This document shows, one piece after another, positions 2,780 to 53,651 of a stretch of 64,000 nt of DNA. Each line of letters opens with the position of its first letter. The first letter of the stretch is position 1. The DNA is taken from NCBI GenBank assembly GCA_050950765.1, contig JBMNIF010000002.1, forward strand, positions 1,152,001 to 1,216,000, read 5' to 3'. Position numbers and translations under genes: made by a program. The stretch comes from Bdellovibrionota bacterium (lineage in GTDB: Bacteria; Bdellovibrionota_C; UBA2361; JAAYZI01). The notes beneath the pieces were generated by a model. That model ran no database searches, was not told the DNA's origin, and was given only the letters and a program-made list of their open reading frames with translations.

Positions 2780-3045
2780 TTGCAAAACGAATCGGTTAGG
2801 TTTGAACGGAGGTCAAAAATTTGGTGCCACCCTTTAAAAATTTGGTGCCACCCTTTAGGGCTGCTAATAATATCAAGATGTTAGTAGAAGTTTAGAATTC
2901 GGCAGTTTTGGTGCCACCCTTCAATTTTGGTAGATTTTGCAGTTTTGTCTGGTTTTGTCACTGGTGCCACCCACCAGCGGCATCTCCTTGGGTGGTCTTT
3001 AAATAATTATTATAAAAAACAAAAATTTGGTGCCACCCTTCAGGG
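2780..3045 (+). repeat. REP-like mosaic array (5 cores TGGTGCCACCC)
   Basis: Cores near 2822, 2843, 2909, 2962 and 3029; spacers recur in other arrays. Confidence 0.9.
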
Positions 3046-3284
3046 AGGATTTTTAAGCTCTTGCTAACATATTGTTATTATTAGTTATTATACTTTGGCA
3101 GGTTTTTCGCCGTGAAATATAAACCTTTGTTTTAAAATGTACGAATATACTCCTTGCTGATCGAGATGGGGGGGGAGTGTAAGCGGTTTGTCAGTGCGCT
3201 TATATAATAAGGTGACTCCGAGAGTGTAGTTCAAGGTGGTGGGTGGCAAGAATGTTAATAGGGTGTGGCAAAGATTTTCCATCG

Positions 3285-3991
3285 ATGGACGCCGAAGAAC
3301 GTCAGCTGTGCCAAATTTTTGTGATTGAGCCTGACTCTCTTATGCGAGAAGAGATGGGTAGGTGTTTAAGGGAGCTGGGTTTTTCAAAGTTAAGCGATGT
3401 AGCGACCCATGCAGAGGGCATTGAAAAAGTTGTGCATGACAATTATACCATGTGATCTTTGATTCTTTGCCGACGGAGATGCCTATTCTTGAGTTTATGC
3501 AGCAACTAATCTCTATCAATTCGAAATGCGTTCTTCTTCCGACCGCTTCAGAACTTAATTTAGATAAGATCTCAGATCTGTTAATGCAGGGCGCACACGG
3601 TTATCTTGAAAAACCGTTTGTTTTAGATGCTGTTGATGAGAGTATCGTTAGCGCTACAAAGGGTAAGCCGATTATTGATATAATACTTGGTGCGCAGGAT
3701 AGAAATAAAGCCTTAGTAGATATTTTGCTTCAGCTATTGGATATAACGTCTATTATTATTCGTCAGTCAAAAACATTTAGTAGCGCTCAAAGAGAGTTAC
3801 CATTTGCATTAAACGCTTTTAGACGCTCATCCACTGTGGCAAGGATGTTTTGTATCGGCGGTGAAGAGTGTTTGCTTGAAACAATTCAAGACCTCTCTAT
3901 CGCGCGTAGCGAAACAGCGGCAAGTCAGATCGGACGACTACGCAAACTTTTAAAAGATAAGCGTGAAGCAGCAGCACCTACTGCTAATTGA
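3285..3991 (+). pseudogene. Response-regulator receiver protein split by a 1-bp frameshift at ~3450 (or a sequencing error)
   Basis: ORF1 has IFVIEPD...GIEKV; ORF2 continues VIFDSLP...GAHGYLEKPF. Adding one C to 'tatacca tgtg' gives the contiguous NYTHVIFD. Confidence 0.7.
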
Positions 3992-4230
3992 GACCTTCCT
4001 GATCTTGAAACAGGAAAGGTGTGAAGATTAGGTGTGAAGATAATCTTAGTATGCCACTAATGGAGGAAACTAATAAGCTGTTAAATAATAAGGTCGGAAG
4101 TGATCAATTCTTCCCGTTCTATCCTGATTACTGATTAAAAAAGAGGTAGCCTTATTAAGACAGTAAAAAATTTTGTAGATACACCCCCTCTCAAAAAATT
4201 TAATATCAGAAAATTAGAGGATACTTTTAT

Positions 4231-5073
4231 TTATTGATCAAAGTTCTCTTTTGTATAAATTACACTTAAGACACACAAGATAAACGGCACGATCCAGATA
4301 GTTGGTATACAAATGGTAGCCCAGAAATAGGTTATTTGTACTATTTCTAAAGTTGATCCTGAAGATGGCATAAAGTAGGAGGGCATTATTAAGAGAAGAG
4401 AAGCTAAAAGCCCTAATAAAATTGCCGTTACTATTAAGGTAATATAACTTAGGGCATGTTTTAAAATTACTTTAAGGCAGATTAAGCTTCTGTTTACTAT
4501 ATTTTTAAAGTCTTTGATGTCATTCATGAAGATATTGATGAATGTGTACACTATGATAATTCCCAAAAGACACACAATCGACACTAGGACGAAAGCTTTG
4601 ACTGAAGAAAGTGAGTAGGGAATTGATTTATATATTAGTAGGTAATATGGGATGCACACCACGAAAAACATCGGAGAATGGGTGATATATTTTTCAAGCT
4701 CTTCAAAAAAATCATCATAGTTTGTCGTACCTTTCTTTATGACTTCAATATTTTTAATTAAGATAAAAGCTAAGGTTAGTGCGGCAAAAATTGGAAGTAA
4801 GATAAAATATATAGAATAGAATGTCATAAATAGTTTATTCTCTTCAACGTCTGTTTTTAAAAGAGAATTAAGAGCATCAACTGTTAAAAAGGCTGCTATG
4901 GTTAAGACTAGGTATACCGTTATCCCTATAAAACAGATCCTCCAGATGCCGAGTTTGACACCTTTGGTTTGGGTTACTTTCCAAGCTTCAGACAAGACAT
5001 CTCTTACACGCCAACCTTCGTTACTGTTGGTTTCAACAGGAAGTTCTTGATTGTTTTGATCTGGCATTGACAT
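4231..5073 (-). CDS. Hypothetical multi-pass membrane protein
   Basis: 280-aa ORF with about 6 hydrophobic segments; very AT-rich. Confidence 0.7.
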   Translation of the reverse strand: MSMPDQNNQELPVETNSNEGWRVRDVLSEAWKVTQTKGVKLGIWRICFIGITVYLVLTIAAFLTVDALNSLLKTDVEENKLFMTFYSIYFILLPIFAALTLAFILIKNIEVIKKGTTNYDDFFEELEKYITHSPMFFVVCIPYYLLIYKSIPYSLSSVKAFVLVSIVCLLGIIIVYTFINIFMNDIKDFKNIVNRSLICLKVILKHALSYITLIVTAILLGLLASLLLIMPSYFMPSSGSTLEIVQITYFWATICIPTIWIVPFILCVLSVIYTKENFDQ

Positions 5074-5458
5074 AATTACTATCTTTAATTTTAAGTTTTT
5101 ATACCCTCAGTATATCGATATAAGGTCTTATATGGAGATAATAATCTAAGCGATTATGAAAAAGGCTGAAAGTAGTTGTTTTTTGATTAAAAGCGGAGAT
5201 ATTACTGTGCAAAAGATCTTTTCAATTATCTGATTTTACCCATAGAGGTTCGTTCGGAAAAAAATGAGAATGCTACAAAAATTATTATTAAAAAATAGGG
5301 TATATTTAAAATGAGCGTAAATTTAAGCTTGCAAAAAGATAGATTCTCTAAGAAGAAGGAGATTGATAAAGATAAGCTTAATAATAAAAGTAAAAAGGAG
5401 AAGATAAGAGCTTTAGATAAGTAGTATTTACTAACCTCAATTCCATTCGGTGTTTTTT

Positions 5459-5498
5459 AAAAAATATGAGCCTTAAAGTTTTCACCTCAAGGCTCATA
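5459..5498 (-). terminator. Probable intrinsic terminator of cassette 1
   Basis: Minus strand reads TATGAGCCTTGAGG-TGAAAA-CTTTAAGGCTCATA followed by a T run. Confidence 0.65.
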
Positions 5499-5588
5499 AC
5501 GTTCTAGAAGGGCGACGCGCAACACCTACCATAGTTGTCGGAGATCTTGCCGTCGCTTGTTTCCTTCTATTAGCCGCGTGCGTAGATA

Positions 5589-5927
5589 CTAAGCCTGTTC
5601 CGCTGATCCTACGGAGGCGTGGAAAAGACCTTTGTATAAACTACGCTTACTCAAATGCTGGACCACTTTGTTCGCAAACGACAACAGCAAAGGATAATCT
5701 GCGTTTGGCACCATAAATACTATGGTGTCGTATCCCTTCATGGTGTCATGCCCTTCCTCCCAGAATGTAGTCTGGTACGACGGATTCGTTTTTCTCCAAC
5801 AGACATCGATAGCGATTTTTAAGAGAAACAATTTGAAACGAGATTCATCACTAGGGCACACGAATGCGATAGGTTGGCAAGAATTATCCCCGTTATATGC
5901 GAGGGGATCTTCTTTTGCTTGGCACAC
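5589..5927 (-). CDS. Hypothetical protein (cassette 1, 112 aa)
   Basis: GTG at 5927 is preceded by an AAGGAG SD. The longer ORF call (6041) starts inside the conserved hairpin. Confidence 0.55.
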   Translation of the reverse strand: MCQAKEDPLAYNGDNSCQPIAFVCPSDESRFKLFLLKIAIDVCWRKTNPSYQTTFWEEGHDTMKGYDTIVFMVPNADYPLLLSFANKVVQHLSKRSLYKGLFHASVGSAEQA

Positions 5928-5964
5928 TTTATTCTCCTTTAGTGCGGGTGATTGACTCATTCTG

Positions 5965-6180
5965 GATATCGAACATTCGAATATCACCCGATGAGTCGTC
6001 TCTATCAAGTTGTGAAAAAGAACTAAACAGAAACGACTCATCGGAGAAGGAGTCCCTTTTGGAAAAAAAGGAGGATGCCGAGAAAAGCCCTACCACTTTT
6101 AAACGTCAAATGGATATACTAAAAAAATCCTTTATAAAAACCGATCTTCTACCCATTACCAAGCTCTTATCTTATAAGAT
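5965..6180 (-). promoter_or_regulatory. Conserved structured 5' leader, copy 1 (also at 7029-7240 and 8307-8510)
   Basis: ~24-bp hairpin CCGATGAGTCGT...ACGACTCATCGG whose G-U pairs fit the minus strand; anti-SD-like TCCTCCTT/CTCCTTCT tracts; GATATC-armed palindrome. Confidence 0.6.
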
Positions 6181-6581
6181 GCGATTTTATACGAGACTTT
6201 ATTTTTAGGCAAAAAAATAGTGAAGATCCGATCTTATAATTTAAAAAGCTTAAAATTTAAGGTCTTATATTTAAAACGAGCGTAAATTTAAGCTTGCAAA
6301 AAGATAGATTCTCTAAGAAGAAGTTCTAAGATAAAGAAAGCCCAAGCTTAATAATAAAAGTAAAAAGGAGAAGATAAGAGCAACGAATGGACACTAAAGA
6401 ACCGAAGCGAAAAACCTCTGTATAGCATCCATCCGTTGTTCTTAAGCATAAGGTCTAAAGTGCTCCCTTGAAAATTTCAAAGGGCTTCAGGGCTTACAAC
6501 GTTCTAGGAACGACGTGCGACGGTACCGAGAAGGCGTAGCAGGTCATGCCAACACTTAGCGGTTAGTAATTGCCGTTGTCT

Positions 6582-6989
6582 TCAGGTATTTGGTTCTTGA
6601 TACCAATCGTCTTCAAATATTGGTTCCGGATTGTAATGCCACTTAAACGTGAGATAGGAGGTAATAACTTCTAAAGAGGTCACTATCTTTTCCACAACCG
6701 AAGTGAATTTTTCGAGGAACTCTTCTTCAGTTGTGGCACCAAGATCGTAGACAGTTACCGTGATCACTATAAGGTCATTTCTCCTTGAGGGGTCGCTATT
6801 TATCGAGTGGTGACATTCCATTTTGAAAGTTTCCGAAAAGCCCGACGAAGAATATTCCCCCCAGTAATCGCAGATAGAATTTTTGAGTTGATCCATTCTG
6901 GATTCCCATTCGAGATTAGTTTCGTCGGGTGATCCGCGATTAATTTCGAGGTTGGCTTGGTATTTCAAGCCTCCAAGGCTTTCCTCCAT
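6582..6989 (-). CDS. Hypothetical acidic protein (cassette 2, 135 aa)
   Basis: ATG at 6989 (MEESLGG) with an AGGAG SD 9 nt upstream. Confidence 0.65.
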   Translation of the reverse strand: MEESLGGLKYQANLEINRGSPDETNLEWESRMDQLKNSICDYWGEYSSSGFSETFKMECHHSINSDPSRRNDLIVITVTVYDLGATTEEEFLEKFTSVVEKIVTSLEVITSYLTFKWHYNPEPIFEDDWYQEPNT

Positions 6990-7622
6990 GACGGTTTCTC
7001 CTATAATGAAAAAGTTAAACTCATTCTGGATATCGAACGTTCGAATATCACCCGATGAGTCGTCTCTATCAAGTTGAAAAAGAACTAAACAGAAACGACT
7101 CATCGGAGAAGGAGTCCCTTTTGGAAAAAAAGGAGGATGCCGAGAAAAGCCCTATCGTTTTTAAACGTCAAATGGATACACTAAAAAAAATCCTTTGTAA
7201 AAACCGATCTTCTACCCATTACCAAGCTCTTATCTTATGGTACGTGAGTCTATACGAGACTTTATTTTTGAGGCAACACGTTTAGGCAAAAAAATAGTGA
7301 AGATCCGATCTTAATAATTTAAAAAGCTTAAAATTTAGGGTCTTATATTTAAAACGAGCGTAAATTTAAGCTTGCAAAAAGATAGATTCTCTAAGAATTA
7401 GGAGATTGATAAAGATAAGCTTAATAATAAAAGTAAAAAGGAGAAGATAAGAGCAACGAATGGACACTAAAGAACCGAAGCGAAAAACCTCTGTATAGCA
7501 TCCATCCGTTGTTCTTAAGCATAAGCCCTAAAGTGCCCCTTGAAAATTTCAAGGGCTTCAGGGCTTACAACGTTCTAGGAACAACGTGCAACGTTGCCGA
7601 GAAGGCGTAGCAGCACGCTAGC

Positions 7623-8240
7623 TTATGCACAGTCTTCGTCTTCTGGAGCGGGAATATCGTAAGAAGATCCTTGAATCCCTACGCCCGTACCGTCATCAAA
7701 CGATATTGTTAAGGAGCCACCGCCGAGCTGTTTGGCGAGAGATTCCCCAAGGAAGTCGAGTTCTTCTAGGGATATGCCGTAACCTTTTGGGAGACGGAAT
7801 TCAACCGTTACATAGCGATAGTTTTCATCTGCGTAGACTTCAACGACAACCTGTTCGCACTTTGAGAATTTTTCGCTCAGTTCTCCTCCCACAAGGAAGG
7901 CGAGCTCTTCCGACGTTTTCTCATTGACGGAGGGACAATCTCTTAAGGTAATACAGTATTGATTGTACCCCACTCCCATTATGCAAAGATCGCGCGATTG
8001 CTTTGGAAACGAGTCCCCTTTAGAAGAGAAGAATTTCTTCTTGTCGGTGTAAATTCTTACCTCAATCTTGAGAGGGAAAGTTTCTCCGTTTACGTTAATC
8101 TCGAAAAGGAAATCGAAAACGGAAACTGTGGATTCGATAAGGTTCCCGCACCTATCAGGTTCACGTTCAATAACGGTCCTTTCCTTCCATCCTTTCAACG
8201 AGATTTGCTGATAGCAGCGTTTATCCAATTTATCAGGCAT
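7623..8240 (-). CDS. Hypothetical acidic protein (cassette 3, 205 aa)
   Basis: Long ORF with an AAGGAGG SD upstream of the ATG. Confidence 0.7.
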   Translation of the reverse strand: MPDKLDKRCYQQISLKGWKERTVIEREPDRCGNLIESTVSVFDFLFEINVNGETFPLKIEVRIYTDKKKFFSSKGDSFPKQSRDLCIMGVGYNQYCITLRDCPSVNEKTSEELAFLVGGELSEKFSKCEQVVVEVYADENYRYVTVEFRLPKGYGISLEELDFLGESLAKQLGGGSLTISFDDGTGVGIQGSSYDIPAPEDEDCA

Positions 8241-8946: not shown

Positions 8947-9045
8947 CACCTCTTCGATCTGGAAGGTGCAAAGTATGCAGTATTTACACTGATGGGAGCA
9001 GCCACGACCTTTAACACCTCTTCGATCTGGAAGGTGTAAAGTATC
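8947..9045. repeat. Two direct copies of a ~29-bp hairpin-forming sequence CACCTCTTCGATCTGGAAGGTGYAAAGTAT
   Basis: Copies at ~8947 and ~9015. Confidence 0.75.
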
Positions 9046-9254: not shown

Positions 9255-10403
9255 GTGGATAAAGGGAATAATACTGCTCTGCAAAGTGGACAAAAGATAA
9301 TAGGGGGAGAAGATGACGCTTTTCTATCAGAGCAGATTATTACATACATCGGAAATAAGCGGGCGTTACTCGTCTTTATCGGAGAAGCGCTTGACGTTGT
9401 AAGGAAAGAGTTAAAAAAAGAGAAGATAGATCTCGTTGATGCTTTTTCCGGTTCGGGAGTGGTCTCAAGGTATTTTAAACAGTTTAGTGCAAACTTATTC
9501 AGTAACGATTTAGAAGCTTACTGTCAGACGATAAACCGCTGCTACTTAACAAATAAAGAAGATCTGGATTTCGAAGCTTTACATGCTCATTACGATGCGA
9601 TTACTGATAAACTTGAAAGACTGCCTCTAAAAAAAGGCTTTATTTCAGAGTTGTATGCACCGCAAAATGATGCGGCTATCAAAGAAAATGAGAGAGTTTT
9701 CTTTACCTGTCGTAATGCAAACTATATCGACACCTGTCGACAATATCTGGAAGATGTGCCGCAGCCGTATAAGGGTTTACTCCTTGCGCCTTTACTGTAT
9801 GAGGCATCTGTTCATAACAATACCTCTGGAGTTTTTAAAGGATTTTATAAAAACTCAAAAACGGGGATCGGTCAGTACGGAGGGAATGCACAAAACGCTT
9901 TAAGTAGAATAAAAAAAGAGATTAAGTTACCGCTACCGATCTTCAGTAACTTTAATTGTGCAGTGCATATACTTAAGGAAGATGCTGCCAAGCTTCCGCA
10001 TATTTTGCCCGCAACAGACCTCGTATATCTAGATCCGCCGTATAATCAACACCCTTACGGCTCAAACTATTTTATGCTTAATCTGATTAATTCTTATCAG
10101 AGACCGAAAAATATCAGTCGAGTTTCAGGCATTCCAAAAAAATGGAATAGATCAAGATATAATAAAAAAGCGGAATCCGCAGAAGCCTTAGCAACACTTT
10201 GTAACGAATTAAAAACAAAATATCTTCTGATATCATTTAATTCAGAAGGGTTTGTTAGCCTTGATGAGATGAAAAAAATCCTCAAAAAACAGGGCAAAGT
10301 AACTATCTTAGAAACTAAATACAACACCTTTAGAGGTTCTAGAAATCTTAGAGGGCGTAACCCGTATGTTAAAGAATATCTGTATCTCGTGAAAAAATAT
10401 TGA
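9255..10403 (+). CDS. N6-adenine DNA methyltransferase (D12 class), no adjacent endonuclease
   Basis: ITYIGNKR, DAFSGSGVVS (motif I), YLDPPYNQHPY (motif IV) and ISFNSEG. Confidence 0.88.
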   Translation: MDKGNNTALQSGQKIIGGEDDAFLSEQIITYIGNKRALLVFIGEALDVVRKELKKEKIDLVDAFSGSGVVSRYFKQFSANLFSNDLEAYCQTINRCYLTNKEDLDFEALHAHYDAITDKLERLPLKKGFISELYAPQNDAAIKENERVFFTCRNANYIDTCRQYLEDVPQPYKGLLLAPLLYEASVHNNTSGVFKGFYKNSKTGIGQYGGNAQNALSRIKKEIKLPLPIFSNFNCAVHILKEDAAKLPHILPATDLVYLDPPYNQHPYGSNYFMLNLINSYQRPKNISRVSGIPKKWNRSRYNKKAESAEALATLCNELKTKYLLISFNSEGFVSLDEMKKILKKQGKVTILETKYNTFRGSRNLRGRNPYVKEYLYLVKKY

Positions 10404-15392: not shown

Positions 15393-15394
15393 TC

Positions 15395-23879: not shown

Positions 23880-24830
23880 GATTTAAGCTGGACGGCAGGC
23901 TTTGTCACTGGTGGTCGGTTTTGGTGCCACCCTTTAGTTTTGGTAGATTTGGCATTTTTAGCTGGTTTGTCACTGGTGCCACCCTTCAGTTTGGGCAGAT
24001 CTGGCAGATTTGGCTGGGCTTGGCTTTGGTGCCACCCTTCATCAGTGGGTCATTTGGGCAGTTGTCACTGGTGCCACCCTTCAGGATCGCTACTTTGGGT
24101 TGAGATCTGGCTGTCGGCATTTGGTGCCACCCTTCAATTTTGGTGGTTGGTCGGCTTTGGCTGGTCGGATTTGGTGGTCGGATCTGGTGCCACCCTTTAG
24201 GATCGCTGCTTTGGGTTGAGATCTGGCTGTCGGCATTTGGTGCCACCCTCCAATTTTGGTGGTTGGTCGGCTTTGGCTGGTCGGATTTGGTGGTCGGATC
24301 TGGTGCCACCCTTTAGGATCGCTGCTTTGGGTTGAGATCTGGCTGTCGGCATTTGGTGCCACCCTCCAGTTTGGGGCTAGATCTGGCGGCAGGCTTTGGT
24401 GCCACCCTTCATCAGTGGGTCATTTGGGCAGTTGTCACTGGCTGGCTAGATCTGGTGCCACCCTTCAGGATCGCTGCTTTGGGTTGAGATCTGGCTGTCG
24501 GCATTTGGTGCCACCCTTCAATTTTGGTGGTTGGTCGGCTTTGGCTGGTCGGATTTGGTGGTCGGATCTGGTGCCACCCTCCAGTTTGGGCGAATTTGGC
24601 AGCTTTTGGACGGCAGGCTTTGGTGCCACCCTTTAGCTTTACTCTAAGTAAGGCTTCCTGATATGGTCATGAGCAGGTGTCATCCATTAGCGCCGAGTGC
24701 TTTGCAATCAAGGTGTTTTAACTTTAAATTAGTAATAATTAAATAATATTAAGGTACTAACAAAAGCTTAAAATTTAGTTAAAAGTGGGTGTCCTAAAGA
24801 GAAGAAAGTATCTACACTCGAAAGTCAGGA
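23880..24830 (+). repeat. REP-like mosaic array (~14 cores, internal 116-bp periodicity)
   Basis: All TGGTGCCACCC cores share one orientation; higher-order unit at 24069/24185/24301; terminal AT-rich module with GGGTGTCCTA. Confidence 0.93.
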
Positions 24831-26762: not shown

Positions 26763-27425
26763 GTTGGTGCCACCCATTAGTTGGATGAGATTTGTCGATT
26801 TTAGCTGCTTTGTGGTTGGTGCCACCCACCAGTCACCCTTTAGGATTGCTGCTTTGGGTTGAGATCTGGCTGTCGGCATTTGGTGCCACCCTTCAATTTT
26901 GGTAGATTTTGCAGTTTTGTCTGGCTTTGTCATTGGTGCCACCCTTTAGGGACAGCAGGACGGGCTGATACTGAAAAGCGGGGTCGGCTAGATCTTGAGG
27001 GGGGTTAAGAAACTGGTGCCACCCTTTAGGATTGCTGCTTTGGGTTGAGATCTGGCTGTCGGCACGGCATTTGGTGCCACCCACCAGTAAAACGGGATCT
27101 GGCAGGGCGAATTTGGTGCCACCCTTCAGGAGCTAGATCTCAACGGGGGTTAAAAAACTGGGTGTCCTAATTGGCAGCGGTGGCTTTTGGATCTGGTGCC
27201 ACCCTTTAGGGACAATTGGACGGGCTGATACTGCAGAACGGATTGGCTAGGTCTATACGGGGGTTAAAAAACTGGTGCCACCCTTCTTTGTTGAGTGTTT
27301 TGTAATTAAGATATTTGAACTTTAAAATATAATAAATTTAATAATATCAAGATACTGGCGTGATACTTTAAATTTAGTTAAAAGTGAGTGTTCTAAAAAG
27401 AAGAAAATAACTACACTTAGAAGTT
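26763..27425 (+). repeat. REP-like mosaic array (~9 cores)
   Basis: The first core lies ~3 nt after the lepA stop; modules are shared with the 2.8, 24 and 32 kb arrays. Confidence 0.92.
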
Positions 27426-28974: not shown

Positions 28975-29913
28975 ATGACAGAAAAAAAAGTTCTTGGACT
29001 CTTTCCAGGGCAGGGGTCTCAACAAGTTGGTATGGGAAAGGATTTTGTTGAAGCGTTGCCGTTAGCAAAAGATCTTTTTGATGTTGCGGATAAGGCACTT
29101 GGATTCTCTTTGTCAGAGATCTGCTTTGATGGTCCCATTGAAAAGCTTACGGCTACGCAGTTTGTGCAACCTGCTATCTTAACAGTTAGTACTATCTGTT
29201 ATAGAGCTTTTTTGGGTGCGCACCCAGATCTGCAAGTTGTTGCTGCGGCGGGTCATAGTTTAGGAGAGTATTCGGCATTGGTGGCGGCTGAAGCGTTGAC
29301 ATTTGAAGAGGCGGTGCAACTGGTGCATAAACGCGGCAGGTATATGCAGGAAGCGGTGGCGGTCGGAGAGGGGAAAATGGTTGCAGTTCTTGGAAAAGAA
29401 TTGGCAGAGATTGATGATGCTTTAGCGAAAGTTACTGTTGGAAGTTGTGTTCAGATCGCTAATATTAATGCACCAGGGCAAGTTGTGGTATCAGGGGTAC
29501 AAGATGCCGTTAATGAGTTTTTGGAGATCTTAGGAGCTGCTAAAACAGTAGTATTGGCAGTCAGCGCGCCGTTTCATTGTGATTTGATGGAACCTGCTGC
29601 GCAGGAATTGGCAAAAGACCTTGATAAGACGACTATTTCTAAAGCAAAGTTTCCTATCTATTGCAATGTAACTGGTAAGGCAGTTTCCCAGCCTGAAGAG
29701 ATAAGGGAAGCTTTGAAGAAGCAGGTTTGTGGTAGTGTGCGTTGGGTAGAGTGCATGGAAAATGCTTTAAGCGACGTTGCGCCGCAAGAAGCTATTGAGT
29801 TTGGCGCAGGAAGTGTGCTTTGCAATCTTTTAAAAAGGATCAACAAAGAAGTTCCGCGGTATAATGTTGGAAGTTTTGATGCATTGGTGCCACCCACTAC
29901 TTTAGAAGCTTAG
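28975..29913 (+). CDS. fabD: Malonyl-CoA:ACP transacylase
   Basis: FPGQGSQ, GHSLGEYSAL and VSAPFHC. Confidence 0.96.
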   Translation: MTEKKVLGLFPGQGSQQVGMGKDFVEALPLAKDLFDVADKALGFSLSEICFDGPIEKLTATQFVQPAILTVSTICYRAFLGAHPDLQVVAAAGHSLGEYSALVAAEALTFEEAVQLVHKRGRYMQEAVAVGEGKMVAVLGKELAEIDDALAKVTVGSCVQIANINAPGQVVVSGVQDAVNEFLEILGAAKTVVLAVSAPFHCDLMEPAAQELAKDLDKTTISKAKFPIYCNVTGKAVSQPEEIREALKKQVCGSVRWVECMENALSDVAPQEAIEFGAGSVLCNLLKRINKEVPRYNVGSFDALVPPTTLEA

Positions 29914-30087
29914 AATTGAAGGTGATTAAAGCTGGTAAAACTGGTGCCACCCACTAGTGAAGCTTGGTGCTGGACTGGCAAACTGGTGCCACCCTTCAGC
30001 TTTGCTGGCTTTGACGGCTCAGGGGATGAATTTGGTGCCACCCATTAATATTAACCTGCTTTACAAGTAGGACATCCAAACTTTAAA

Positions 30088-31664: not shown

Positions 31665-32202
31665 TTTAAAATTGCAACAGTTAATAATATCAAGATATTA
31701 GTAGAAGCTTACAATTTAGCGAATTTGGTGCCACCCACTAGTGGAGCTTGGTGCTGGACTGGCAAACTGGTGCCACCCATTAATATTAGGCTGCTTTACA
31801 AGTAGGACATCCGAACTTTGAAATTGCAACAGTTAATAATATCAAGACATTAGCAGAAGCTTACAATTTAGCGAATTTGGTGCCACCCATTAGTTGGATG
31901 ACGGGGACGGGCTGCAACTGCAGAACGGATTGGCTAGGTCTGTATGGGGGTTAAAAAACTGGTGCCTCCCTTCAGCTTTGCTGGCTTTGACGGCTCAGGG
32001 GATGAATTTGGTGCCACCCTTCAGTTTGGGCACTGGTGCCACCCATTAGTTGGATGACGGGGACGGGCTGCAACTGCAGAACAGATTGGCTAGGTCTGTA
32101 TGGGGGTTAAAAAACTGCTGCCACCCTTTAGGATTGCTGCTTTGGGTTGAGATCTGGCTGTCGGCACGGCATCTGGTGCCTCCCTTCAGAGTTGGATCTT
32201 TA

Positions 32203-34284: not shown

Positions 34285-34480
34285 AAAACTAGTGCCACCC
34301 TTCAGGGACAACTGAACGGGCTGGGACTGCAAAACGGATCAGCTAGGTCTTCACGGGGGTAAAAACTGGTGCCACCCTTCTTTTTGCCCTTAAATCAGCA
34401 ATTATTGCAGGCTTGTCACTGGTGCCACCCTTCTTTTCTTTTTCTAGCGCCATCCTCACACTAAAGGGTGGCACCAATCC
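34285..34480. repeat. REP-like cluster upstream of RAYT, ending in an inverted pair
   Basis: Cores at ~34290 (variant), 34367 and 34420; inverted GGGTGGCACCA at ~34466 gives a 13-bp stem. Confidence 0.88.
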
Positions 34481-34625
34481 CAATCTCCAAACTTTTTTCA
34501 TTTTTACCCACAATAAAATCCCAACTCTAGCGACAATTAAGCGTTAGAATTTGGCAATCCTGCCAAACTAACCGGCAATTCTGCCAATTTATTGATTATT
34601 TTTATTTTTCATCTGGAGTTGTCTT

Positions 34626-35594
34626 ATGAGAAATCGTCGAGATAGGAGAAATCCTAATAAAATGGTGGTACATGTCACCAATAGAACATTATCTGGCTTG
34701 CCATTTCTAGCACGCCTTTTTATGAAATGGATCCTGTTAGGGATTATGGCACGTTGCCAAGAGCACCATCGTGTTAGAATTGCTCATTTTAATTGGATGA
34801 GTAACCACTTTCACATGATATTAGTTGGTGAAGGGAAACACATCTCTTCATTTATGGGAGAGATGGAAAGTGCAGTTGCACGCGCTATTAAGAAACTAAC
34901 GCCGCAATATAGGAGAAACGTTTGGGATGGACGTTTTAAGGAGCAACGTTTGTTAACTCATAATGATGTTATCGATAAGATAGTCTATATTTATATAAAT
35001 CCTGTAAAAGCAGGCCTTGTTGCACATGCTGATGATTGGGAAGGGTGTAGTAGTTTTAGAATGTATAAATCAGGCTCTTTAACAGTGCAGGGTAAGTATA
35101 CCTCTTCTACTAATTTACGTAAGTTACCGCAGAGACTTCATAAAATAAGCGATGCTATTTTATTAAAAATGCTTAATATGTTTCCGCACACTTGTCATGA
35201 GCTTAAGATTACCCCTGATGCTTGGAAGAATTGTTTTGAAGAATCAAAAAACCTTACGTCTGAAGAGATCTTTAAAACAATAATGACAGAGATTTCAAAA
35301 AGGGAAGAAGAGATTGCACTTGAAAGGAAGGGGCATTTTATGGGGATGCGTAAAGTGCAGCAGCAATCGATAAATATTGCGTATGTACCTAAGAAGAAGA
35401 CGCGTACGCCGTATTTAATTTGTTGGATTAAGGAGTTACGGATAAAGGCGATAGCAGAATATAAGGCTTTTTGTGAAGAGTGTAGAAAGGCTTGGAAGAA
35501 GTGGAAGCAAGGTGATATTTCAGCTAAGTTTGTTTATGGGGCATTTCGTCCGAGTATGCCTATTGTAGGTAGGCTTTGCGGGGTGGCGACCTGA
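34626..35594 (+). CDS. REP-associated tyrosine transposase (RAYT/TnpA-REP, Y1 HUH superfamily)
   Basis: HVTNRT, WMSNHFHMIL (HUH), VWDGRF, YIYINPVKAGLV (catalytic Tyr region) and DDWEGCSS; flanked by repeat cores on both sides. Confidence 0.9.
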   Translation: MRNRRDRRNPNKMVVHVTNRTLSGLPFLARLFMKWILLGIMARCQEHHRVRIAHFNWMSNHFHMILVGEGKHISSFMGEMESAVARAIKKLTPQYRRNVWDGRFKEQRLLTHNDVIDKIVYIYINPVKAGLVAHADDWEGCSSFRMYKSGSLTVQGKYTSSTNLRKLPQRLHKISDAILLKMLNMFPHTCHELKITPDAWKNCFEESKNLTSEEIFKTIMTEISKREEEIALERKGHFMGMRKVQQQSINIAYVPKKKTRTPYLICWIKELRIKAIAEYKAFCEECRKAWKKWKQGDISAKFVYGAFRPSMPIVGRLCGVAT

Positions 35595-35804
35595 AAAAAG
35601 TAATGTAAAAAAGCTGCTTTTTTGACCCGTTAATAATATGAAATCTAAATTTCAACAGGGAAGATCTATCTAAAATCTGGAAATAGTCAATTAATTGTAA
35701 ATTGTAGTATCAAATTTAAGGAAATTTAAGGTGAGTTAAGCTTGCTGGCAGCAGCATAAGGAGAAAAAAGGCTGTCAGAAGAGCAAAAACAGCAACGCAG
35801 GTCG

Positions 35805-36385
35805 TACTGGTGGGTGGCACCAGGGATAAGGGCTTGGGGCTGGTGGGTGGCACTAGGGCGACCAAGTATTTTTATTGTGTTATTGTTTTTTTAGTGATGT
35901 TATAACGAAAACGGCTGCGTTGTTTTGCGTTAGCAGCGTGATCCTTGTTTGAATAAATTTTGTGAGTTCGGTTATGAGAAAGATCTTAGTTATTTTTATT
36001 TTAATGACCTCTTTATGCGCTTGTTCTGGAGTTGCGCACCTTTCAACTCCGGCAGCGCCCCAAGGTAGACCTGTTCTATCATGTCAGGCTTCTACAAGCG
36101 CTTTTATGTTGTTTAATTTTGCACCTATAGCATATAACGATATGTTGGAACGCGCTTTTAACGAATGCGCTGGAAGTATTGGAGCTTCAGCCTTAACGAA
36201 TATCAGTGTGCGTGAAAAATGGTATTGGACCCCCGTCGGCAACGGCTTTATCACAACAGTTACAGCACAAGGGGTTAGATAATTTTAGCTATGCTTTGGA
36301 TTTGGTGCCACCCTCTGTTGGATTTTTATTGAGTCAGAAGTTATTAAAGGGTGGCACCAGTGATACTGGTGGGTGGCATCAAGAC
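35805..36385. repeat. REP-like cores downstream of RAYT (35812, 35844; inverted pair 36303/36348; variant 36371)
   Basis: Read directly from the sequence. Confidence 0.85.
35974..36282 (+). CDS. Small lipoprotein
   Basis: Signal peptide with lipobox-like LCAC; 102 aa. Confidence 0.65.
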   Translation: MRKILVIFILMTSLCACSGVAHLSTPAAPQGRPVLSCQASTSAFMLFNFAPIAYNDMLERAFNECAGSIGASALTNISVREKWYWTPVGNGFITTVTAQGVR

Positions 36386-39059: not shown

Positions 39060-40158
39060 AGAGGGTGGCACCAGTACGCTAGCAGCCAGTGACAGTCGAA
39101 TGGGCTGAAACTACAGAGCAAGTCAGCTAGATCTGGACGGAGGTCAAAAATTAAATTTGGTGCCATCCATTAGTTGTTGGGAGTTGATGGGAAGTCAACA
39201 GACGAGGAAAGAAGGGTGGCACCAGTGAGCAGAATCTTAAAATTGCAATAATTTAATAACATCAAAGTGTTAACTAGAATTTAAAATTTAGCTAAGAGAG
39301 AGAGTCCTTTTTATATTAATGGGTGGCACCAGTACGCCACGCCTTCAAGGACGGCAGAGTGGGCTGAAACTGTAGAGCGAGTCAGCTAGATCTGGACGGG
39401 GGGTTAAAAATTTGGTGCCACCCAACAGGGACGGCAGAATGGGCTGAAACTACAGAGCAAGTCAGCTAGATCTGGACGGAGGTTAAAAATTTGGTGCCAC
39501 CCTTCAAGGACGGCATGCCCAGCACAGCACCCCGCTAGTCAGCATAACATCTAAAAAAGAAGGGTGGCACCAGTGAGCAGCCAGTGAGCAGACAACCTTA
39601 AAATCACAATAATTTAATAACATCAAAGTGTTAACTAAAATTTAAAATTTAGCTAAGAGAGAGTGTCCTTTTTATATTAATGGGTGGCACCAGTACGCCA
39701 CGCCTTCAAGGACGGCAGAGCGGGCTGAATGTAGAGCGCCAATCAGTTGATGGGAAGTCAACAGACGAGGAAAGAAGGGTGGCACCAGTACGGACGGCAC
39801 AAAAATTTGGTGCCACCCACCAAGGACGGCAGAGTGGGCTGAAACTAAAAACCGAATCGGTTAGATCTGGACGGAGGTCAAAAATTTGGTGCCACCCTTC
39901 AAGGACGGCATACCCAGCACAGCATCCCGCTAGTTAGCATAACATCTAAAAAAGAAGGGTGGCACCAGTGAGCATGCAATCTTAAAATCACAATAATTTA
40001 ATAACATCAAAGTGTTAACTAAAATTTAAAATTTAGCTAAGAGAGAGTGTCCTTCACCAGTACGCCAACCACAGACGAGGAAAAGAAGGGTGGCACCAGT
40101 ACGCCAGCTAGCTCCCCGCCCTTCAACATAACGTCTAAAAAAGAAGGGTGGCACCAAG
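39060..40158. repeat. REP-like mosaic array with mixed orientation and inverted doublets (~14 cores)
   Basis: Lies between convergent rsmJ and cstA; doublets at ~39492/39562 and ~39887/39957. Confidence 0.9.
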
Positions 40159-46229: not shown

Positions 46230-46258
46230 AAGTGGAACATGGATTAGAAAAAAATGCT

Positions 46259-47191
46259 TTAATAGTTTGTAATTAAAACCTCCGTAATTTTGCCGCGCCC
46301 CGATCCTTTAGAGTTAATAACACGAGCTGCTTTAACTTTATAAATATTGAAGCCTTTATATAGTTCCATAATTAACGGTGCTGCCGAATTGGATAGCATC
46401 CATTTTACGCCGCGCTTATCAAGTTCTACGCAAACATCTCTTAGTCTTAACTGCTCGTCTTGTCCGAAGCCGTTGGGATTGTAAGTTGTAAAGTTTGAAG
46501 TTGCACTAAGTGGGGCGTACGGTGGATCGAAATAAACAAAGTCTCCCTTTTCTGCTTTTTTTAAAACAGACTCAAAGGAGGCGACTTTTAGGTGTGTATC
46601 CTTGAGAGCTATGCTACAAGCTTGTAAATTATCTTCATCAAGCCACTTGGGATTTTTGTATCGTCCAAACGGAACGTTAAATTGCCCTAAAGAATTAACG
46701 CGATACAAGCCGTTGTAACAGTTCTTGTTGAGGTAAATCAGACGGCTTGCTTTTGAAACAGAATGCCAACGATTATAACTCGGACGACGATCGGCGTTAC
46801 GGATTTCATAATAATATTCTTCACCACCTTTATGCTTTTTTAAGGCTTGGCATAACTTCTTACAATTATCACGAACTGCTGTGTATGCGTTAATTAATTC
46901 TCCGTTTATATCAGAAAGATAGGCATTCTTCGGTTGAAGCTCAAAGAAAAGAGCGCCTCCCCCGACAAACGGTTCAAAATAACGATTAAAATTACTCGGT
47001 GCGAGACCCTTTAAGATTTTTAAGAGTTGTTTTTTTCCGCCAGCCCACTTGATAAAAGGACGTGGTGATGGCTGCGGTTCTGGAATTGAAGAGAGCGGCA
47101 GTTGTATTAATTTAGGAGTCTTAGGACGTTTTTTTAAACGTTCGCTAGACTTCGTGCGTGATTTGGCGTTAGTTTCTGAGCTTGATGCCAT
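46259..47191 (-). CDS. dam: DNA adenine methylase (Dam/DpnM-like)
   Basis: PFIKWAGGKKQL, YFEPFVGGGA, YLNKNCYNGLYRVN..G.FNVPFG and FVYFDPPY. Confidence 0.9.
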   Translation of the reverse strand: MASSSETNAKSRTKSSERLKKRPKTPKLIQLPLSSIPEPQPSPRPFIKWAGGKKQLLKILKGLAPSNFNRYFEPFVGGGALFFELQPKNAYLSDINGELINAYTAVRDNCKKLCQALKKHKGGEEYYYEIRNADRRPSYNRWHSVSKASRLIYLNKNCYNGLYRVNSLGQFNVPFGRYKNPKWLDEDNLQACSIALKDTHLKVASFESVLKKAEKGDFVYFDPPYAPLSATSNFTTYNPNGFGQDEQLRLRDVCVELDKRGVKWMLSNSAAPLIMELYKGFNIYKVKAARVINSKGSGRGKITEVLITNY

Positions 47192-47329: not shown

Positions 47330-48790
47330 AACCTCTTGATATTACTAGCGTCTCTGTTGGATGGCACCAAATTCCCAACCACCAGATCTAAGCCCGTTCA
47401 GTTGTTCTTGGTGGGTGGCACCAAATTCATCCAGTCGCTTAAGCCATCAAAGCGGCAAAAAAGAAGGGTGGCACCAGTTTTTTAACCCCCGTCGAGCGGC
47501 TAAACTGAAGGGTGGCACCAAGATCGCCAAACCTAAACTTCTGCTAATGTCTTGATATCACTAGCGTCCCTGTTGGGTGGTACCAAATTTTTAACCTCCG
47601 TAGAAATCTAGCTGACTCGTTCTGCAGTTGCAGCCCGTCCTGCTGCTCTGTTGGGTGGCACCAAAACTGCCAAACTTAAACTTCTGCTAATGTCTTGATA
47701 TCATTAGCGTCCCTAGTGGGTGGCACCAGATTTTTAACCCAGCCTTTCAATTAGGACACCCACTTTTTACCCCCGTCTAGGTCTAGCTACTTCGTTTTTT
47801 AGTATCAGCCCGCTTAATCGTCCCTAAAAGGTGGGGGAGCTTCTGAAGGGTGGCACCAAAAGCCAAGCCAGCCAAATCTGCCAGATCCCGTCCTTACTGA
47901 AGGGTGGCACCAAATTCCCAACCACCAGATCTAAGCCCGTTCAGTTGTTCTTGGTGGGTGGCACCAAATTCATCCAGTCGCTTAAGCCATCAAAGCGGCA
48001 AAAAAGAAGGGTGGCACCAGTTTTTTAACTCTGCAGTTACAGCCCGTCCTGCTGTCCCTAGTGGGTGGCACCAGAATCGCCAAACCTAAACTTCTGCTAA
48101 TGTCTTGATATCACTAGCGTCCCTGTTGGGTGGCACCAAATTTTTAACCCAGCCTTCCAATTAGGACACCCACTTTTACCTGAAGGGTGGCACCAAATTT
48201 TTGATCTCCGTCCAGATCTAGCCGATTTGATTTGCAGTTGCAGCCCGTCCTGCTGTCTCTGTTGGATGGCACCAAATTCCCAACCACCAGATCTAAGCCC
48301 GTTCAGTTGTTCTTGGTGGGTGGCACCAAATTCATCCAGTCGCTTAAGCCATCAAAGCGGCAAAAAAGAAGGGTGGCACCAGTTTTTTAACTCTGCAGTT
48401 ACAGCCCGTCCTGCTGTCCCTAGTGGGTGGCACCAGAATCGCCAAACCTAAACTTCTGCTAATGTCTTGATATCACTAGCGTCCCTGTTGGGTGGCACCA
48501 AATTTTTAACCCAGCCTTCCAATTAGGACACCCACTTTTAGCTGAAGGGTGGCACCAAATTTATCCAGTCGCTTAAGCTGTCAAAGCGGCAAAAAAGAAG
48601 GGTGGCACCAGTTTTTTAACCCCCGTCCAGATCTAGCCGATTCGATTTGCAGTTGCAGCCCGTCCTGCTGTCCCTGTTGGGTGGCACCAAATTTTTGACC
48701 CCCATCGAGCCGATCCCGCTCTGCAGTTGTACCCGTTCTACTCTCCCTTGAAGGGTGTTCAGTTGTCCCTAGTGGGTGACTCCAGTAACA
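47330..48790 (-). repeat. Largest REP-like mosaic array (>20 cores, read GGGTGGCACCA on +; ~360-bp higher-order repeat)
   Basis: Repeated modules, e.g. CATCCAGTCGCTTAAGCCATCAAAGCGGC, CTTCTGCTAATGTCTTGATATC and AATTAGGACACCC. Confidence 0.95.
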
Positions 48791-48793
48791 CCT

Positions 48794-49312
48794 TTATTTT
48801 AAGGGATCATCTGTACTTTTATTTTTTCTTCTAAAATATTCAATTGTAGTAGTTGTTAAAGTGATTATATCCATTACAAACATCGGATACGCTTTAATGT
48901 GAAAATTAAAGATGATCCATTGCGCGTATACAGATATGAAGGTCAGCCTCATATGTTGAGCAGATTTTGATAGCGATGCTAAAATAATAAACGATACCGT
49001 AGCGGTTATTGGGAGAATCCCAAACCAAGAATTCTTGTTAAAGCAGATTCCTAAACAGATTATTCCGATACAAATAAGGGAGATATTATATTTATTCAAC
49101 TTCCCCTTTAAGTCTAAAATATTTCTTATCATAAGTATGAGAATAGAAGTGAAAGCTGAATATCCACCTAACATAAGGAATGAAAGCGCATAGAAGATGT
49201 TGCCGATCAACAGAACGGCTACCATGTTCTTTTTATTCTTGCCGAATATTGAAACTAGGGTAAAAAATACACCAATAAACGATAAAATTTGACCTAAAAT
49301 AAAATCATCCAT
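48794..49312 (-). CDS. YgjV-family inner membrane protein
   Basis: 172-aa hydrophobic ORF with GQILSFIG and LLIGNIFYALSFLMLGGYSA...RN pattern. Confidence 0.7.
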   Translation of the reverse strand: MDDFILGQILSFIGVFFTLVSIFGKNKKNMVAVLLIGNIFYALSFLMLGGYSAFTSILILMIRNILDLKGKLNKYNISLICIGIICLGICFNKNSWFGILPITATVSFIILASLSKSAQHMRLTFISVYAQWIIFNFHIKAYPMFVMDIITLTTTTIEYFRRKNKSTDDPLK

Positions 49313-49735
49313 AATTTTAACAACTCTTGTAATAAACGATACACCCTTAGCGCAGGTCACACACACCTATATTTACATCCTTCCTTGTATTCAAATTTTA
49401 AAAATATTGGAAGAGAACGGTTCCAGCACGGTTTTGATCGCATTGCAGAGATGGGGCTAAAAAAATGCAACGAGGAATGTAAAAGTTATTACTCTGTGCC
49501 TGTTAATTTTAAAGCAGATATTCCTCCTTTTAATAATAAACAAGCTATGTTAACTTTTCCGCACCCCTCTAAAATATAAGAGACTCGGTGTCTAAAGAAA
49601 ATCTTTGACAGTTCTTTTCTTTTTTATGTTTTTGTTGTCGGGGTATCTATCTATTGTTTTGCATCGGATCTTTCCTTACCGAGCAGCTTTGATAGGAAGG
49701 TGTGGAGGCAAATAGAACGGTATAAAGGAGCAATA

Positions 49736-51190: not shown

Positions 51191-51283
51191 AGCTCCTCTC
51201 ATCCTCTAAACGTTTTAAACATTAAGAAGTGGGGGAGATATACCCCCTTTCCCTGTTCTTCTTTATATTTTATCTTCTCTTGC

Positions 51284-52576
51284 ATGATAAAAGACAAGAG
51301 AGGACTATCAACTATCGCTTTGCATGCTGGAGAAAATCGTCGTTCTGATACAAACGCTGCTGCTGTACCGATCTATCAAACGTCATCATTTATTTTTGAC
51401 AGTACGCAATGTGCAGCAGATCTTTTTGCCTATAAAAAATCAGGCAACATCTATTCACGTCTTTCCAATCCGACTAACGATGTTCTTGAGAAAAGGATTG
51501 CAGCTTTTGAAGGCGGCTCCGCAGCTGTCTCTACAGCTTCCGGAATGGCCGCTATCTCAAATGCACTTTTGACAATAACAACTTCAGGAGATGAGATCGT
51601 TTCAACAGATAATCTATACGGTGGGTCGTATTCCCTCTTAAATCACACCTTCCGTGATTTCGGAAGAACTGTTCGCTTTGCACCTTCTACGGATCTCAAT
51701 GCTTTAAAGAGTTTAATTACAGAGAAAACAAAAGCGATCTACACCGAAACGATCGGTAATCCGAAGGTTGATGTGGCAGACTTTGAAAAGTTAGCTGAGA
51801 TCGCTCATCAAGTAGGTATCCCGCTAGTCGTTGATAATACGGTCGGAGTAGGGTTGGTGCGACCATTCGATTTCGGAGCTGATATTATTGTTATCTCCGC
51901 CACAAAATATATCGGTGGACACGGCACATCTTTGGGTGGCTTAATAGTTGATTCTGGAAAATTTAATTGGAATAACGGAAAATTCCCAACCATCACTGCA
52001 CCAGATCCAGCAAATCACGGTTTAGTCTTTTGGGATGCCTTTAATGATGTTCCTGAGGTGGGAAATATGGCTTTCGCTGCAAAGGTGCGTGGGGTGCTTT
52101 TACGAGATCTCGGCGCAGCCTTAAGCCCGTTCAATGCCTTTCAGATCTTGCAAGGGTTTGAAACTTTACCCCTTAGACAGAAGCGTCATTCTGAAAACGC
52201 TTTGGCGGTAGCCGAACATTTAGAGGCACATCCGAAGGTAGCGTGGGTAACGTATCCAGGGCTTCCTTCCAGTCCTTACCATGCGGTTGCTTCAAAATAT
52301 TTAAAGAACGGATATGGCGGGCTGCTCGGTTTCGGGATTAAGGGCGGACGTGAAGCGGGGGTGCGCTTTATCGATTCCGTAAAACTCCTTTTACACTTAG
52401 CAAATATCGGGGATGCTAAATCTTTGGTTATTCATCCTGCTTCAACAACACATCAGCAGCTAAGTCAGGCTGAGCAACTCGCTACGGGAGTTACTGAAGA
52501 TTATATCAGACTTTCTGTCGGTTTAGAGGATGTCTCAGATATCATCGCTGATATAGATCAAGCATTAGAATTTTAA
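51284..52576 (+). CDS. metY: O-acetylhomoserine aminocarboxypropyltransferase
   Basis: PIYQTSSF, YSRLSNPT, SATKYIGGHGT and HLANIGDAKSLVIHPASTTHQQL. Confidence 0.93.
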   Translation: MIKDKRGLSTIALHAGENRRSDTNAAAVPIYQTSSFIFDSTQCAADLFAYKKSGNIYSRLSNPTNDVLEKRIAAFEGGSAAVSTASGMAAISNALLTITTSGDEIVSTDNLYGGSYSLLNHTFRDFGRTVRFAPSTDLNALKSLITEKTKAIYTETIGNPKVDVADFEKLAEIAHQVGIPLVVDNTVGVGLVRPFDFGADIIVISATKYIGGHGTSLGGLIVDSGKFNWNNGKFPTITAPDPANHGLVFWDAFNDVPEVGNMAFAAKVRGVLLRDLGAALSPFNAFQILQGFETLPLRQKRHSENALAVAEHLEAHPKVAWVTYPGLPSSPYHAVASKYLKNGYGGLLGFGIKGGREAGVRFIDSVKLLLHLANIGDAKSLVIHPASTTHQQLSQAEQLATGVTEDYIRLSVGLEDVSDIIADIDQALEF

Positions 52577-53651
52577 CCCCCGTAGAAAACCTAGCCGATC
52601 CCGCTCTGCAAGTTGCAGCCTGTTCGTGCTTTTAATTAGGACACCCACTTTTTACCCCCGTGAAGATCTGGCTGATTTATTCTGTAGTTTCAGCCCATCC
52701 AACCGCCCCTGAAGGGTGGCACCAAATTTTTGACCTCTGCAAGTCGCAGCCCGTTTAGTTGTTCTTGGTGGGTGACTAGCGTCACTGAAGCTAGCGTCAC
52801 TGAAGGGTGGCACCAAAACTGCCGAATTCTAATTTTTGCTAACATCTTGATATTACTAGTGTCCCTGAAGGGTGGCACCAGCATCTAGCCGTCCAAGCCA
52901 ATTAGGACACCCGCTTTTACTGGTGGGTGGCACCAAATTTTCAACCTCCGTCAAGATCTAGCTGATCCCGCTCTGCAGTTGTACCCGTCCTGCTGTCCCT
53001 GAAGGGTGGCACCAGATTTTTAACCTCCGTACAGACCTAGCCGATCCCGCTCTGCAGTTGTACCCGTCCTGCTGTAACTGAAGGGTGGCATCAAAACTGC
53101 CGAATTCTAAGTTTTGCTAATATCTTGATATTACTAGATGTTGTAATTTTAGATTTTGGATGTCCTATTTGCAAAACGTCTGCAGCACTGGTGGGTGGCA
53201 CCAAATTCATCCAGTCGCTTAAGTTGTCAAAGCGGCAAAGCGGTAAAAGAGAAGGGTGGCACCAGATTTTTAACCTCCGTACAGACCTAGCCGATCCCGC
53301 TCTGCCGTAGAAAACCTAGCCGATCCCGTCTTGCAGTTACAACCCGTTCGGTCGTCCCTGAAGGGTGGCACCAGCATCTAGCCGTCCAAGCCAATTAGGA
53401 CACCCACTTTTACTGTTGGGTGGCACCAAATTTTTAACCTCCGTCCAGATCTAGCCGATTCGATTTGCAGTTGCAGCCCGTTCAGTTGTTCTTGGTGGGT
53501 GGCACCAAATTCATCCAGTCGCTTAAGTTGTCAAAGCGGTAAAAAAGAAGGGTGGCACCAAATTTTAACCTTCGTAGAAACCTAACCGATTCGGTTTTGC
53601 AGTTGCACCCGTTCAATCGCCCTGAAGGGTGGCAGCAAAATCGCCAAACCT
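52575..53651 (-). repeat. REP-like mosaic array (~14 cores, GGGTGGCACCA on +)
   Basis: Lies between convergent genes and uses the same module library. Confidence 0.93.

Follow-up and report, generated by a model that had tools for sequence, protein, structure and literature searches.

An HUH/Y1 transposase and shuffled arrays of its 11-bp end motif in a Bdellovibrionota genome

The closest described relatives of the system reported here are the TIRtrons, a name given in 2013 to RAYT-like genes flanked by terminal inverted repeats (TIRs) that also occur in clusters (Di Nocera, PMC3733652). Tentatively, TIRtrons (TIRYTs) correspond to TnpA-Y1 subclass 2.1 (PMC6006769) and to group 1 of the transposases associated with repetitive extragenic palindromic (REP) sequences, the RAYTs (PMC5581495). 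How RAYT-type repeats spread in cells is still open (PMC8266576, PMC3333891), and in these texts RAYT assays are reported only for groups 2 and 3. Here, we analyzed a 64,000-nt stretch (the window) of the genome of a Bdellovibrionota bacterium (G000; 2.64 Mb, five contigs), in which the gene of an HUH/Y1 tyrosine transposase lies among arrays of an 11-bp core, TGGTGCCACCC.

We consider it likely that an active, self-copying element of the TIRtron type has the core as its end motif and that its enzyme nicks one fixed bond. As the 11-mer forms the ends of the element and the DNA bears scars of repeated cutting at one exact spot of the motif, the enzyme itself probably builds the shuffled arrays. 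In its best reading, the system works in the manner of REPs and bacterial interspersed mosaic elements (BIMEs) with an HUH enzyme, is built like a TIRtron, and would be a variant of the RAYT/TIRYT systems. The first-pass annotation had seen here the best candidate for an undescribed system, which was overstated because TIRtrons with clustered TIR repeats were named in 2013 (PMC3733652).

The core motif and the six-copy element

The window holds 86 exact cores (44 on the plus and 42 on the minus strand) and 13 further copies with one mismatch. When clusters were built with a 300-bp gap, 11 were obtained, 10 of them with at least two cores, and 60 of the 75 within-cluster gaps measured 20–80 bp. 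These values are close to the 90–100 copies, about nine arrays, and 20–80 bp spacers estimated at first pass. A count over the whole genome, proposed then as a check, gave 943 exact copies of TGGTGCCACCC and none of the reversed pattern; the copy number exceeds chance by far, and the motif ranks top among all 11-mers of the genome. The 9-mer GGTGCCACC has 986 copies in 159 clusters, of which 105 are multi-core, and these cover 2.4% of the genome, with only 24 of the 986 cores well inside open reading frames (ORFs; crude calls). Adjacent cores, described earlier as mostly head to tail, have this orientation in 804 of 827 pairs genome-wide and face inward in only 18, and 706 of the 804 spacers are distinct in sequence.

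The transposase carries the motifs NHFH and YIYINP, that is, the HUH plus Y---NP signature of TnpA-Y1 class 2. It scored 67.4 bits with the NCBIfam RAYT equivalog NF047646 (cut-off 80) and 18 bits with the IS200 model (cut-off 55), under the threshold in both cases. Residues H61, H63, Y121, N125, and P126 are unchanged across 38 homologues. The best match of its structure model (pLDDT 91.6) was E. coli TnpA-REP 4ER8 (Foldseek E 1.1e-6; Z 13.4, rmsd 2.9, 154 aligned), and the modeled fold is that of TnpA-REP. Subclass 2.1 proteins have a C-terminal helix-turn-helix (HTH) domain (Bac_DnaA_C, HTH_23, HTH_28), or another conserved tail in subgroup 2.1.1 (PMC6006769). The tail here is 170 aa long. 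Among the tails of 58 members, no Pfam family was common to more than three and no HTH family was detected at E 0.1; the tail model (pTM 0.42) had no fold match above Z 4.4, which does not imply a new fold. Compared with the subclass 2.1 motifs in Table 1 of PMC6006769, NH[YF]H and SS fit and W[EQ] differs, being WD here. The marks of subclass 2.3, a 55-aa insertion and YVDLNP, are absent.

Rather than being a static, single-copy RAYT, the gene was found in six copies at different loci, with 99–100% amino-acid and 98–100% DNA identity. A cassette common to all six (Table 1) extends from a plus core about 200 bp upstream of the gene to a minus core about 220 bp downstream, with an additional inner minus core. 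The outer cores are inverted, the inner two form direct repeats around the gene, and a 13-bp stem can form from the left pair. In each of the six copies, the core serves as the end motif of the transposase itself, which bears out the link between RAYT and core drawn earlier; outside the cassette, the copies differ in their array modules. The six gene copies vary at 18 sites, with three amino-acid changes, all in one copy, a pattern compatible with selection for a working enzyme. Four-gamete incompatibility in 14 of 28 informative site pairs suggests conversion between the copies. Truncated duplicates of the cassette's right end (403, 238, and 141 bp) come after two of the copies, and a piece of 69 bp comes after a third. 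Truncated right ends stand as spacers between cores at G000:C2:8860-9320 and C2:891450-891930, one of them holding the last 78 codons of the gene, and upstream of one copy a tRNA-like stretch was seen by eye between two cores (G000:C2 near 893500-893750).

Module shuffling, a fixed junction, and 11-bp phasing

Most of the spacers draw wholly or partly on a library shared between arrays, much as the first reading had it. Whole modules that recur in another array account for 426 of the 804 spacers; 106 are head-plus-tail chimeras joined inside the spacer, 222 belong partly to the library, and 50 are array-specific; a single module is reused in up to 42 arrays. Within the window, a 36-nt module pointed out earlier was recovered at 24200, 24316, 24468, 26843, 27029, and 32131, and a 22-nt module at 2921 and 26893. 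A 12-nt module was found at 2867, 27341, 31684, and 31836, and its reported inverted copies were present only as a 10-mer (47334, 52845, 53123). Coding repeats were rejected as a description of the arrays, the periods not being multiples of 3 (174/741).

Upon measuring the mutual information between bases in 888 distinct contexts, we obtained 0–0.05 bits for bases on opposite sides of the core, compared with up to 0.59 bits on the same side. For head and tail classes with at least eight members, the class-level value was 0.69 across the core (shuffles 0.51, 0.59) and 1.71 within spacers (shuffles 0.39, 0.56). Flanks assort almost freely across the core. The claim that module boundaries usually coincide with cores stands insofar as linkage collapses there, and fails for the 106 internally joined spacers and for the array 3ʹ ends, of which 91 of 105 are ragged and stop in the middle of a module. 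At the array 5ʹ ends, the T before GG was retained in all 40 cases that abut host DNA; as many of these ends carry short tail-like bases, target choice at the 5ʹ end is indistinguishable from carry-over.

The position of joining within the core is also fixed. We found 26 short tandem duplications that abut a core on its 5ʹ side; 20 of them end at TGG|TGCC and four after TGGT, 25 are 8–16 bp long, and 17 have no microhomology. When every exact duplication with its end no more than 45 bp from a core was considered, 20 of 44 ended at the TGG| base. Library tails ran into two, three, and four core bases before diverging in 28, 35, and 1 cases, respectively. A mirror class, in which foreign DNA is joined to TGCCACCC, comprises six cases; each is a TGG-to-TGC variant whose tail is intact. 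We rejected a mirror break at the opposite side of the core, since the seven duplications there had no fixed position. At loci of two other genomes (G019, G040), the TGG| register was found in seven of eight duplications. The genome supplies a fixed junction for the cut-and-join role given to the core at first pass, with TGG|TGCC as the predicted site.

HUH enzymes leave a 5ʹ-phosphotyrosine and a free 3ʹ-OH after cleavage (PMC8266576). A fixed end with arbitrary partners therefore points to a tyrosine-held 5ʹ-CCA, and the asymmetry of the junction is most likely due to a nick on the GGGTGGCA^CCA strand. The TGG| duplications fit the model of nicking, primer extension, and re-joining proposed for BIME growth (PMC3333891). 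In the mechanism that we propose, the enzyme would nick the core at TGG|TGCC on this strand, its tyrosine would retain the 5ʹ-CCA end, and the free 3ʹ-OH would act as a primer for host synthesis or attack a second end held by a tyrosine. When two cores exchange strands, a core with new flanks would be restored and the modules shuffled, and joining of the held end to the nascent strand after about one helical turn would leave the short duplications. Joins at distal sites could give chimeric spacers, truncated element ends, and ragged array ends.

The transposase might instead have only seeded the motif, the arrays having grown by replication slippage and short-repeat recombination with no cut at the core. 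Slippage between direct repeats of 11–13 bp would likewise unlink flanks at cores, overlaps are present at some spacer junctions, and the incompatible site pairs attest to recombination among the six gene copies. We regard this account as unlikely, since it does not predict the single-base peak of junctions, and the lack of microhomology in most short duplications, the 35-to-1 drop between three and four core bases, and the reuse of one module in dozens of arrays all tell against it.

Distances between cores showed peaks near 21, 32–33, 42–44, 53–55, 65, 77–79, 88, 100, 110, 121, and 131 bp. With each spacer family entered once (288 of the 326, 18–140 bp), we obtained a phasing R of 0.39 at 11 bp versus 0.11 in jittered data, with none of 2000 jittered sets reaching the observed value, and an R of 0.48 with one spacer per array; the families are not fully independent because they share ancestry. 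The best period was 11.1 bp (95% bootstrap 11.0–11.25), and fits to lac looping give an in vivo helical repeat of 10.95–11.6 bp (PMC1762422). The phasing probably reflects synapsis of cores on supercoiled DNA: under the proposed mechanism, two cores would meet on the supercoiled duplex, which would favor whole-turn spacing. Selection for curved DNA may be an alternative cause.

A host role would explain the phasing differently. A host protein would bind the core and the arrays would be kept for nucleoid shaping or transcript ends, with selection producing phasing and orientation and a stalled polymerase producing the junction. Besides the 11-bp period itself, the orientation of the arrays speaks for this role, as 66 of 87 one-directional arrays share the direction of the upstream gene (p 1.4e-6) and convergent genes flank 35 of the 87, and so does the scarcity of cores inside ORFs. 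A bias between replichores (leading versus lagging) was considered separately and rejected (38 vs 49, p 0.28). We hold the host role to be very improbable: none of 40 relatives exceeds 37 exact cores, end motifs follow the transposase clade, and stall-and-slip requires the microhomology that 17 of the 26 short duplications lack.

It is also conceivable that the enzyme acts like E. coli TnpA-REP, with the core bound as a mini-REP that has a GTGG foot on one strand, mainly distal cuts, excision and re-insertion of single-stranded circles that carry a core, and TGG| as merely one favored site of several. In E. coli, distal cuts to either side of a REP have been shown (PMC3333891). The chimeric spacers, the ragged ends, and the different lengths of the truncated right ends of the element are in keeping with this mode of action, as is C[CT]AC, found by eye in both arms of 10 of 27 registered homologue ends. 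The two descriptions are partly compatible. As a complete account, distal cutting appears rather unlikely to us because most cores lack a 20–50-nt hairpin (the great majority of pairs being head to tail), free assortment is located at the core itself, and a pure single-strand reaction gives no reason for 11-bp phasing.

Relatives, the sister motif, and known systems

The transposase had a match at E ≤0.001 in 36 of 40 same-order relatives, the best full-length ones at about 30% identity, and 782 clusters scored at E ≤1e-30. Homologue hits were mostly from Bdellovibrionota and the Atlas look-alikes mostly from Myxococcota; tblastn returned no plasmid relatives, and scanning metagenomes yielded a single relative, at 42% and with hardly any flank. 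Our locus survey took in 109 loci with 73 distinct full-length genes, of which 63 had both flanks. An inverted repeat scoring at least 11 was present at 30 of these 63 loci (one being that of G000 itself), compared with 8 of 63 loci for direct repeats and 12 of 300 cross-locus controls. Typical ends start with YTGGTRC or CTGTAC, and outward repeats of them are frequent. A FastTree tree was built from 79 core domains over 147 columns, leaving out long-tail loci that had no registered end; in it, the long-tailed proteins formed one clade (0.96), separate from E. coli RayT and from a second transposase of G000, described below. The subclade of the query (0.996) has mostly TGGT[AG]C ends, three of them with the exact TGGTGCCACCC. 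Judged from these sequences, end motifs track the transposase clade, related enzymes having related ends, which bears on the question about homologue flanks raised at first pass.

At most 37 exact cores were present in any of the 40 relatives, none of which comes near the expansion in G000; for two degenerate end patterns, the highest counts were 137 (control 41) and 53. Most of the assemblies are fragmented and may hide similar expansions. One relative, G010, has a gene fragment of 50% identity with TTGGAGCCACCC just upstream. In G019 (L042-L047, L050), non-coding units of about 70–170 bp lie between inverted cores and resemble MITEs, the miniature transposable elements with inverted repeats, and runs of short duplications ending at TGG stand outside these units. 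In G027, two copies of a related element were seen on one 15-kb contig (G027:C20; L192, L193), with up to eight tandem end motifs upstream.

Several observations weigh against a self-copying element with one fixed nick. According to PMC3333891 and PMC8266576, the TnpA-REP enzymes that have been characterized cleave single-stranded DNA, and do so at dinucleotides that lie apart from the REP and not inside it. A small leftover linkage persists across the core, reached by 1 of 500 within-array shuffles. Among the 105 array 3ʹ ends, TGG is the stopping point of only one; simple integration of circles at host TGG therefore fails to explain new sites and was rejected. In relatives with other end motifs, 7 of 22 duplications (four loci) fall exactly on the predicted bond and the rest lie at −11 to +12; of the seven, three are repeats of one unit and one is identical to a case already counted above. 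The short arrays in G027 and G001 have mostly 22–27 bp periods without a clear 11-bp ladder, and 33 of 63 homologue loci have no inverted end above the threshold. Finally, no Y1 gene was found in G019 with its 37 cores (assembly 92% complete); related cores at its contig ends suggest an unassembled Y1 copy.

A wider reading is possible, and we put it forward only tentatively. The element would belong to a distinct, widespread, self-mobile HUH family of Bdellovibrionota, with look-alikes in Myxococcota, that nicks an 11–16-bp end at one bond on supercoiled duplex, exchanges strands, builds phased arrays, and captures foreign sequence, including the repeats of another transposase. If true, this family would supply the mobile stage that is missing between insertion sequences and the domesticated RAYTs.

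The second transposase, a single-copy Y1 enzyme (Table 1), has GGGTGTCC/GGACACCC sister repeats on both flanks, and clusters of sister repeats alone lie nearby (C1:412.9, 421.9, and 422.8 kb). Its motifs (NHLH, WE, YVDLNP, TS, and a long insertion) fit a subclass-2.3-like enzyme when compared with Table 1 of Quentin 2018 (PMC6006769), and in the core-domain tree it groups with other long-core proteins. The sister motif had been listed together with the core at first pass; it is the repeat of this enzyme. The window holds eight copies of the sister 10-mer. Of the 221 sister copies counted, 165 have a core no more than 300 bp away. As no break signature was found at the sister motif, its copies inside core arrays look like captured cargo. 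Quentin 2018 found no flanking repeats for subclass 2.3 (PMC6006769), and the subclass-2.3-like enzyme here gains a cognate repeat family. The sister 8-mer also occurs inside long coding-like repeats at G000:C2:1243411 and C3:4799, which look like chance matches.

The likeness to TIRtrons lies in a Y1 gene between inverted repeats that are not classical REPs, in repeats that also form a genomic family in dimers or clusters, and in the NHFH, Y---NP, and SS motifs. Among RAYTs, duplication is most frequent in group 1 (6.3%), where the flanking 16-mers have 12 copies on average (PMC5581495). Unlike the long TIRs of TIRtrons, the ends here measure 11–16 bp, with a shared inverted part of about 12 bp and no GGGGWSAS, which some TIRs also lack (PMC3733652). 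Further differences are the roughly 940 copies, compared with the 'moderately abundant' families of PMC3733652, the presence of six near-identical gene copies, the tail with no HTH detected, and the fixed in-core junction and 11-bp phasing, which do not appear in the accessible TIRtron accounts.

With REPtrons, REP/BIMEs, and REPINs (TnpA-REP groups 2 and 3; PMC3333891, PMC8266576), the system shares the HUH fold, intergenic copies in the hundreds, tandem arrays of mosaic build, captured gene fragments, and GT[AG]G on one strand. In contrast to these, its cores are head to tail rather than in inverted doublets, GTGG comes without a 20–50-nt hairpin (only a few contexts fold), and the junction lies inside the motif and not at a distal CT (PMC3333891, PMC8266576). 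The gene is multi-copy, whereas PMC8266576 states that there is no evidence for mobility of tnpA-REP; the RAYT-like gene here behaves as a mobile element.

HUH chemistry, a multi-copy gene, and a fixed end paired with a variable end recall IS200/IS605 and IS91/ISCR/Helitron elements. IS91 gives one-ended products with one fixed and one variable end. Gene capture by IS91 is mentioned in PMC3333891. IS200/IS605 enzymes have Y---Q where Y---NP is found here, and the IS200 score is low; rolling-circle elements differ in that the ends here are inverted and leading/lagging bias is absent. The units of G019 resemble MITEs, but the cognate enzyme family is HUH and not DDE, and inward pairs are rare in G000. 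The repeat-spacer look is that of CRISPR, but the spacers are reused mosaics of variable length, and in the window no Rfam match and, among the 43 ORFs scanned, no cas gene was found.

No account of this motif, clade, cut position, or phased arrays was found in the literature searched, which did not extend to most subscription papers or to the TIR-listing supplements of PMC3733652 and PMC6006769. The genome supplies a base-exact predicted cut site, a strand, a spacing rule, and dozens of natural enzyme–end pairs, with which the question of repeat spread can be reduced to an oligonucleotide or plasmid assay. An enzyme of the HUH type with strand-joining activity at an 11-bp site could be useful as a DNA-joining tool.

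Arrays and neighboring genes in the window

Table 1. Coordinates of the element, the core arrays, and the second transposase (window positions unless a contig is given)
Position	Strand	Feature	Basis
2822..3038	+	Array, 5 cores	Motif search
23922..24796	+	Array, 14 cores; sister motif at 24787	Motif search
26765..27283	+	Array, 9 cores, beginning 3 bp past the lepA stop; sister motif at 27160	
29885..30043	+	Array, 4 cores; first core within the last acyl-transferase codons (ORF ends 29913)	
31726..32044	+	Array, 5 cores; IS1634-family gene between it and the 29885..30043 array	
34288..34418	+	Outward array modules left of the cassette; differ among the six element copies	
34419..35823	.	Cassette common to six copies: + core 34420 and − core 34466 with a 35-bp spacer between them, gene, − core 35812	
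34626..35594	+	HUH/Y1 tyrosine transposase, 322 aa, long C-terminal tail	Pfam Y1_Tnp
36303..36359	.	Inverted core pair (+/−), 46 bp apart, resembling the cassette left end	
39063..40156	.	Mixed-orientation array, 13 cores	
47413..48689	-	Array, 19 cores; sister motifs at 47752, 48162, 48524	
52637..53560	-	Array, 11 cores; sister motifs at 52637, 52903, 53396	
G000:C1:418242-419291		Second Y1 transposase, single-copy, ~350 aa (L185; region C1:418028-419530)	

As short-read assemblies collapse repeats, the arrays might be an assembly artefact, a notion to which we give almost no credence in view of the large majority of distinct spacers and of the metagenome data. The modules and the element are present in four metagenome runs from four studies, and contigs of runs X1, X2, and X14 extend from unique flanks to the terminal repeats of the element at the window locus. 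Two contigs of run X1 cover the array at 26895-27285 without a difference. This support consists of short-read contigs only, and X1 may be the source sample. Read depth on the gene was 2.6–5 times that of the flanks, a value that comes from collapsed contigs and is not a measure of copy number. Of the sequence words looked for, only 6% occurred in two RNA runs. No empty site for the cassette was found among the 15 of 66 joints listed in the read data.

Since its first core (29885-29913) sits in the last codons of the acyl-transferase ORF, the array there supplies the stop codon of that gene. The mixed-orientation array contains an 11-bp duplication ending at TGG| next to the core at 39562-39572. 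Two IS1634-family transposase genes (30218-31654 and 54681-56117) scored above the NCBIfam cut-off, and the first of them splits an array. Five ORFs of 150–280 aa without a Pfam match lie at 3452-8240, and the window also holds two genes for D12-class adenine methyltransferases, at 9255-10403 and 46259-47191.

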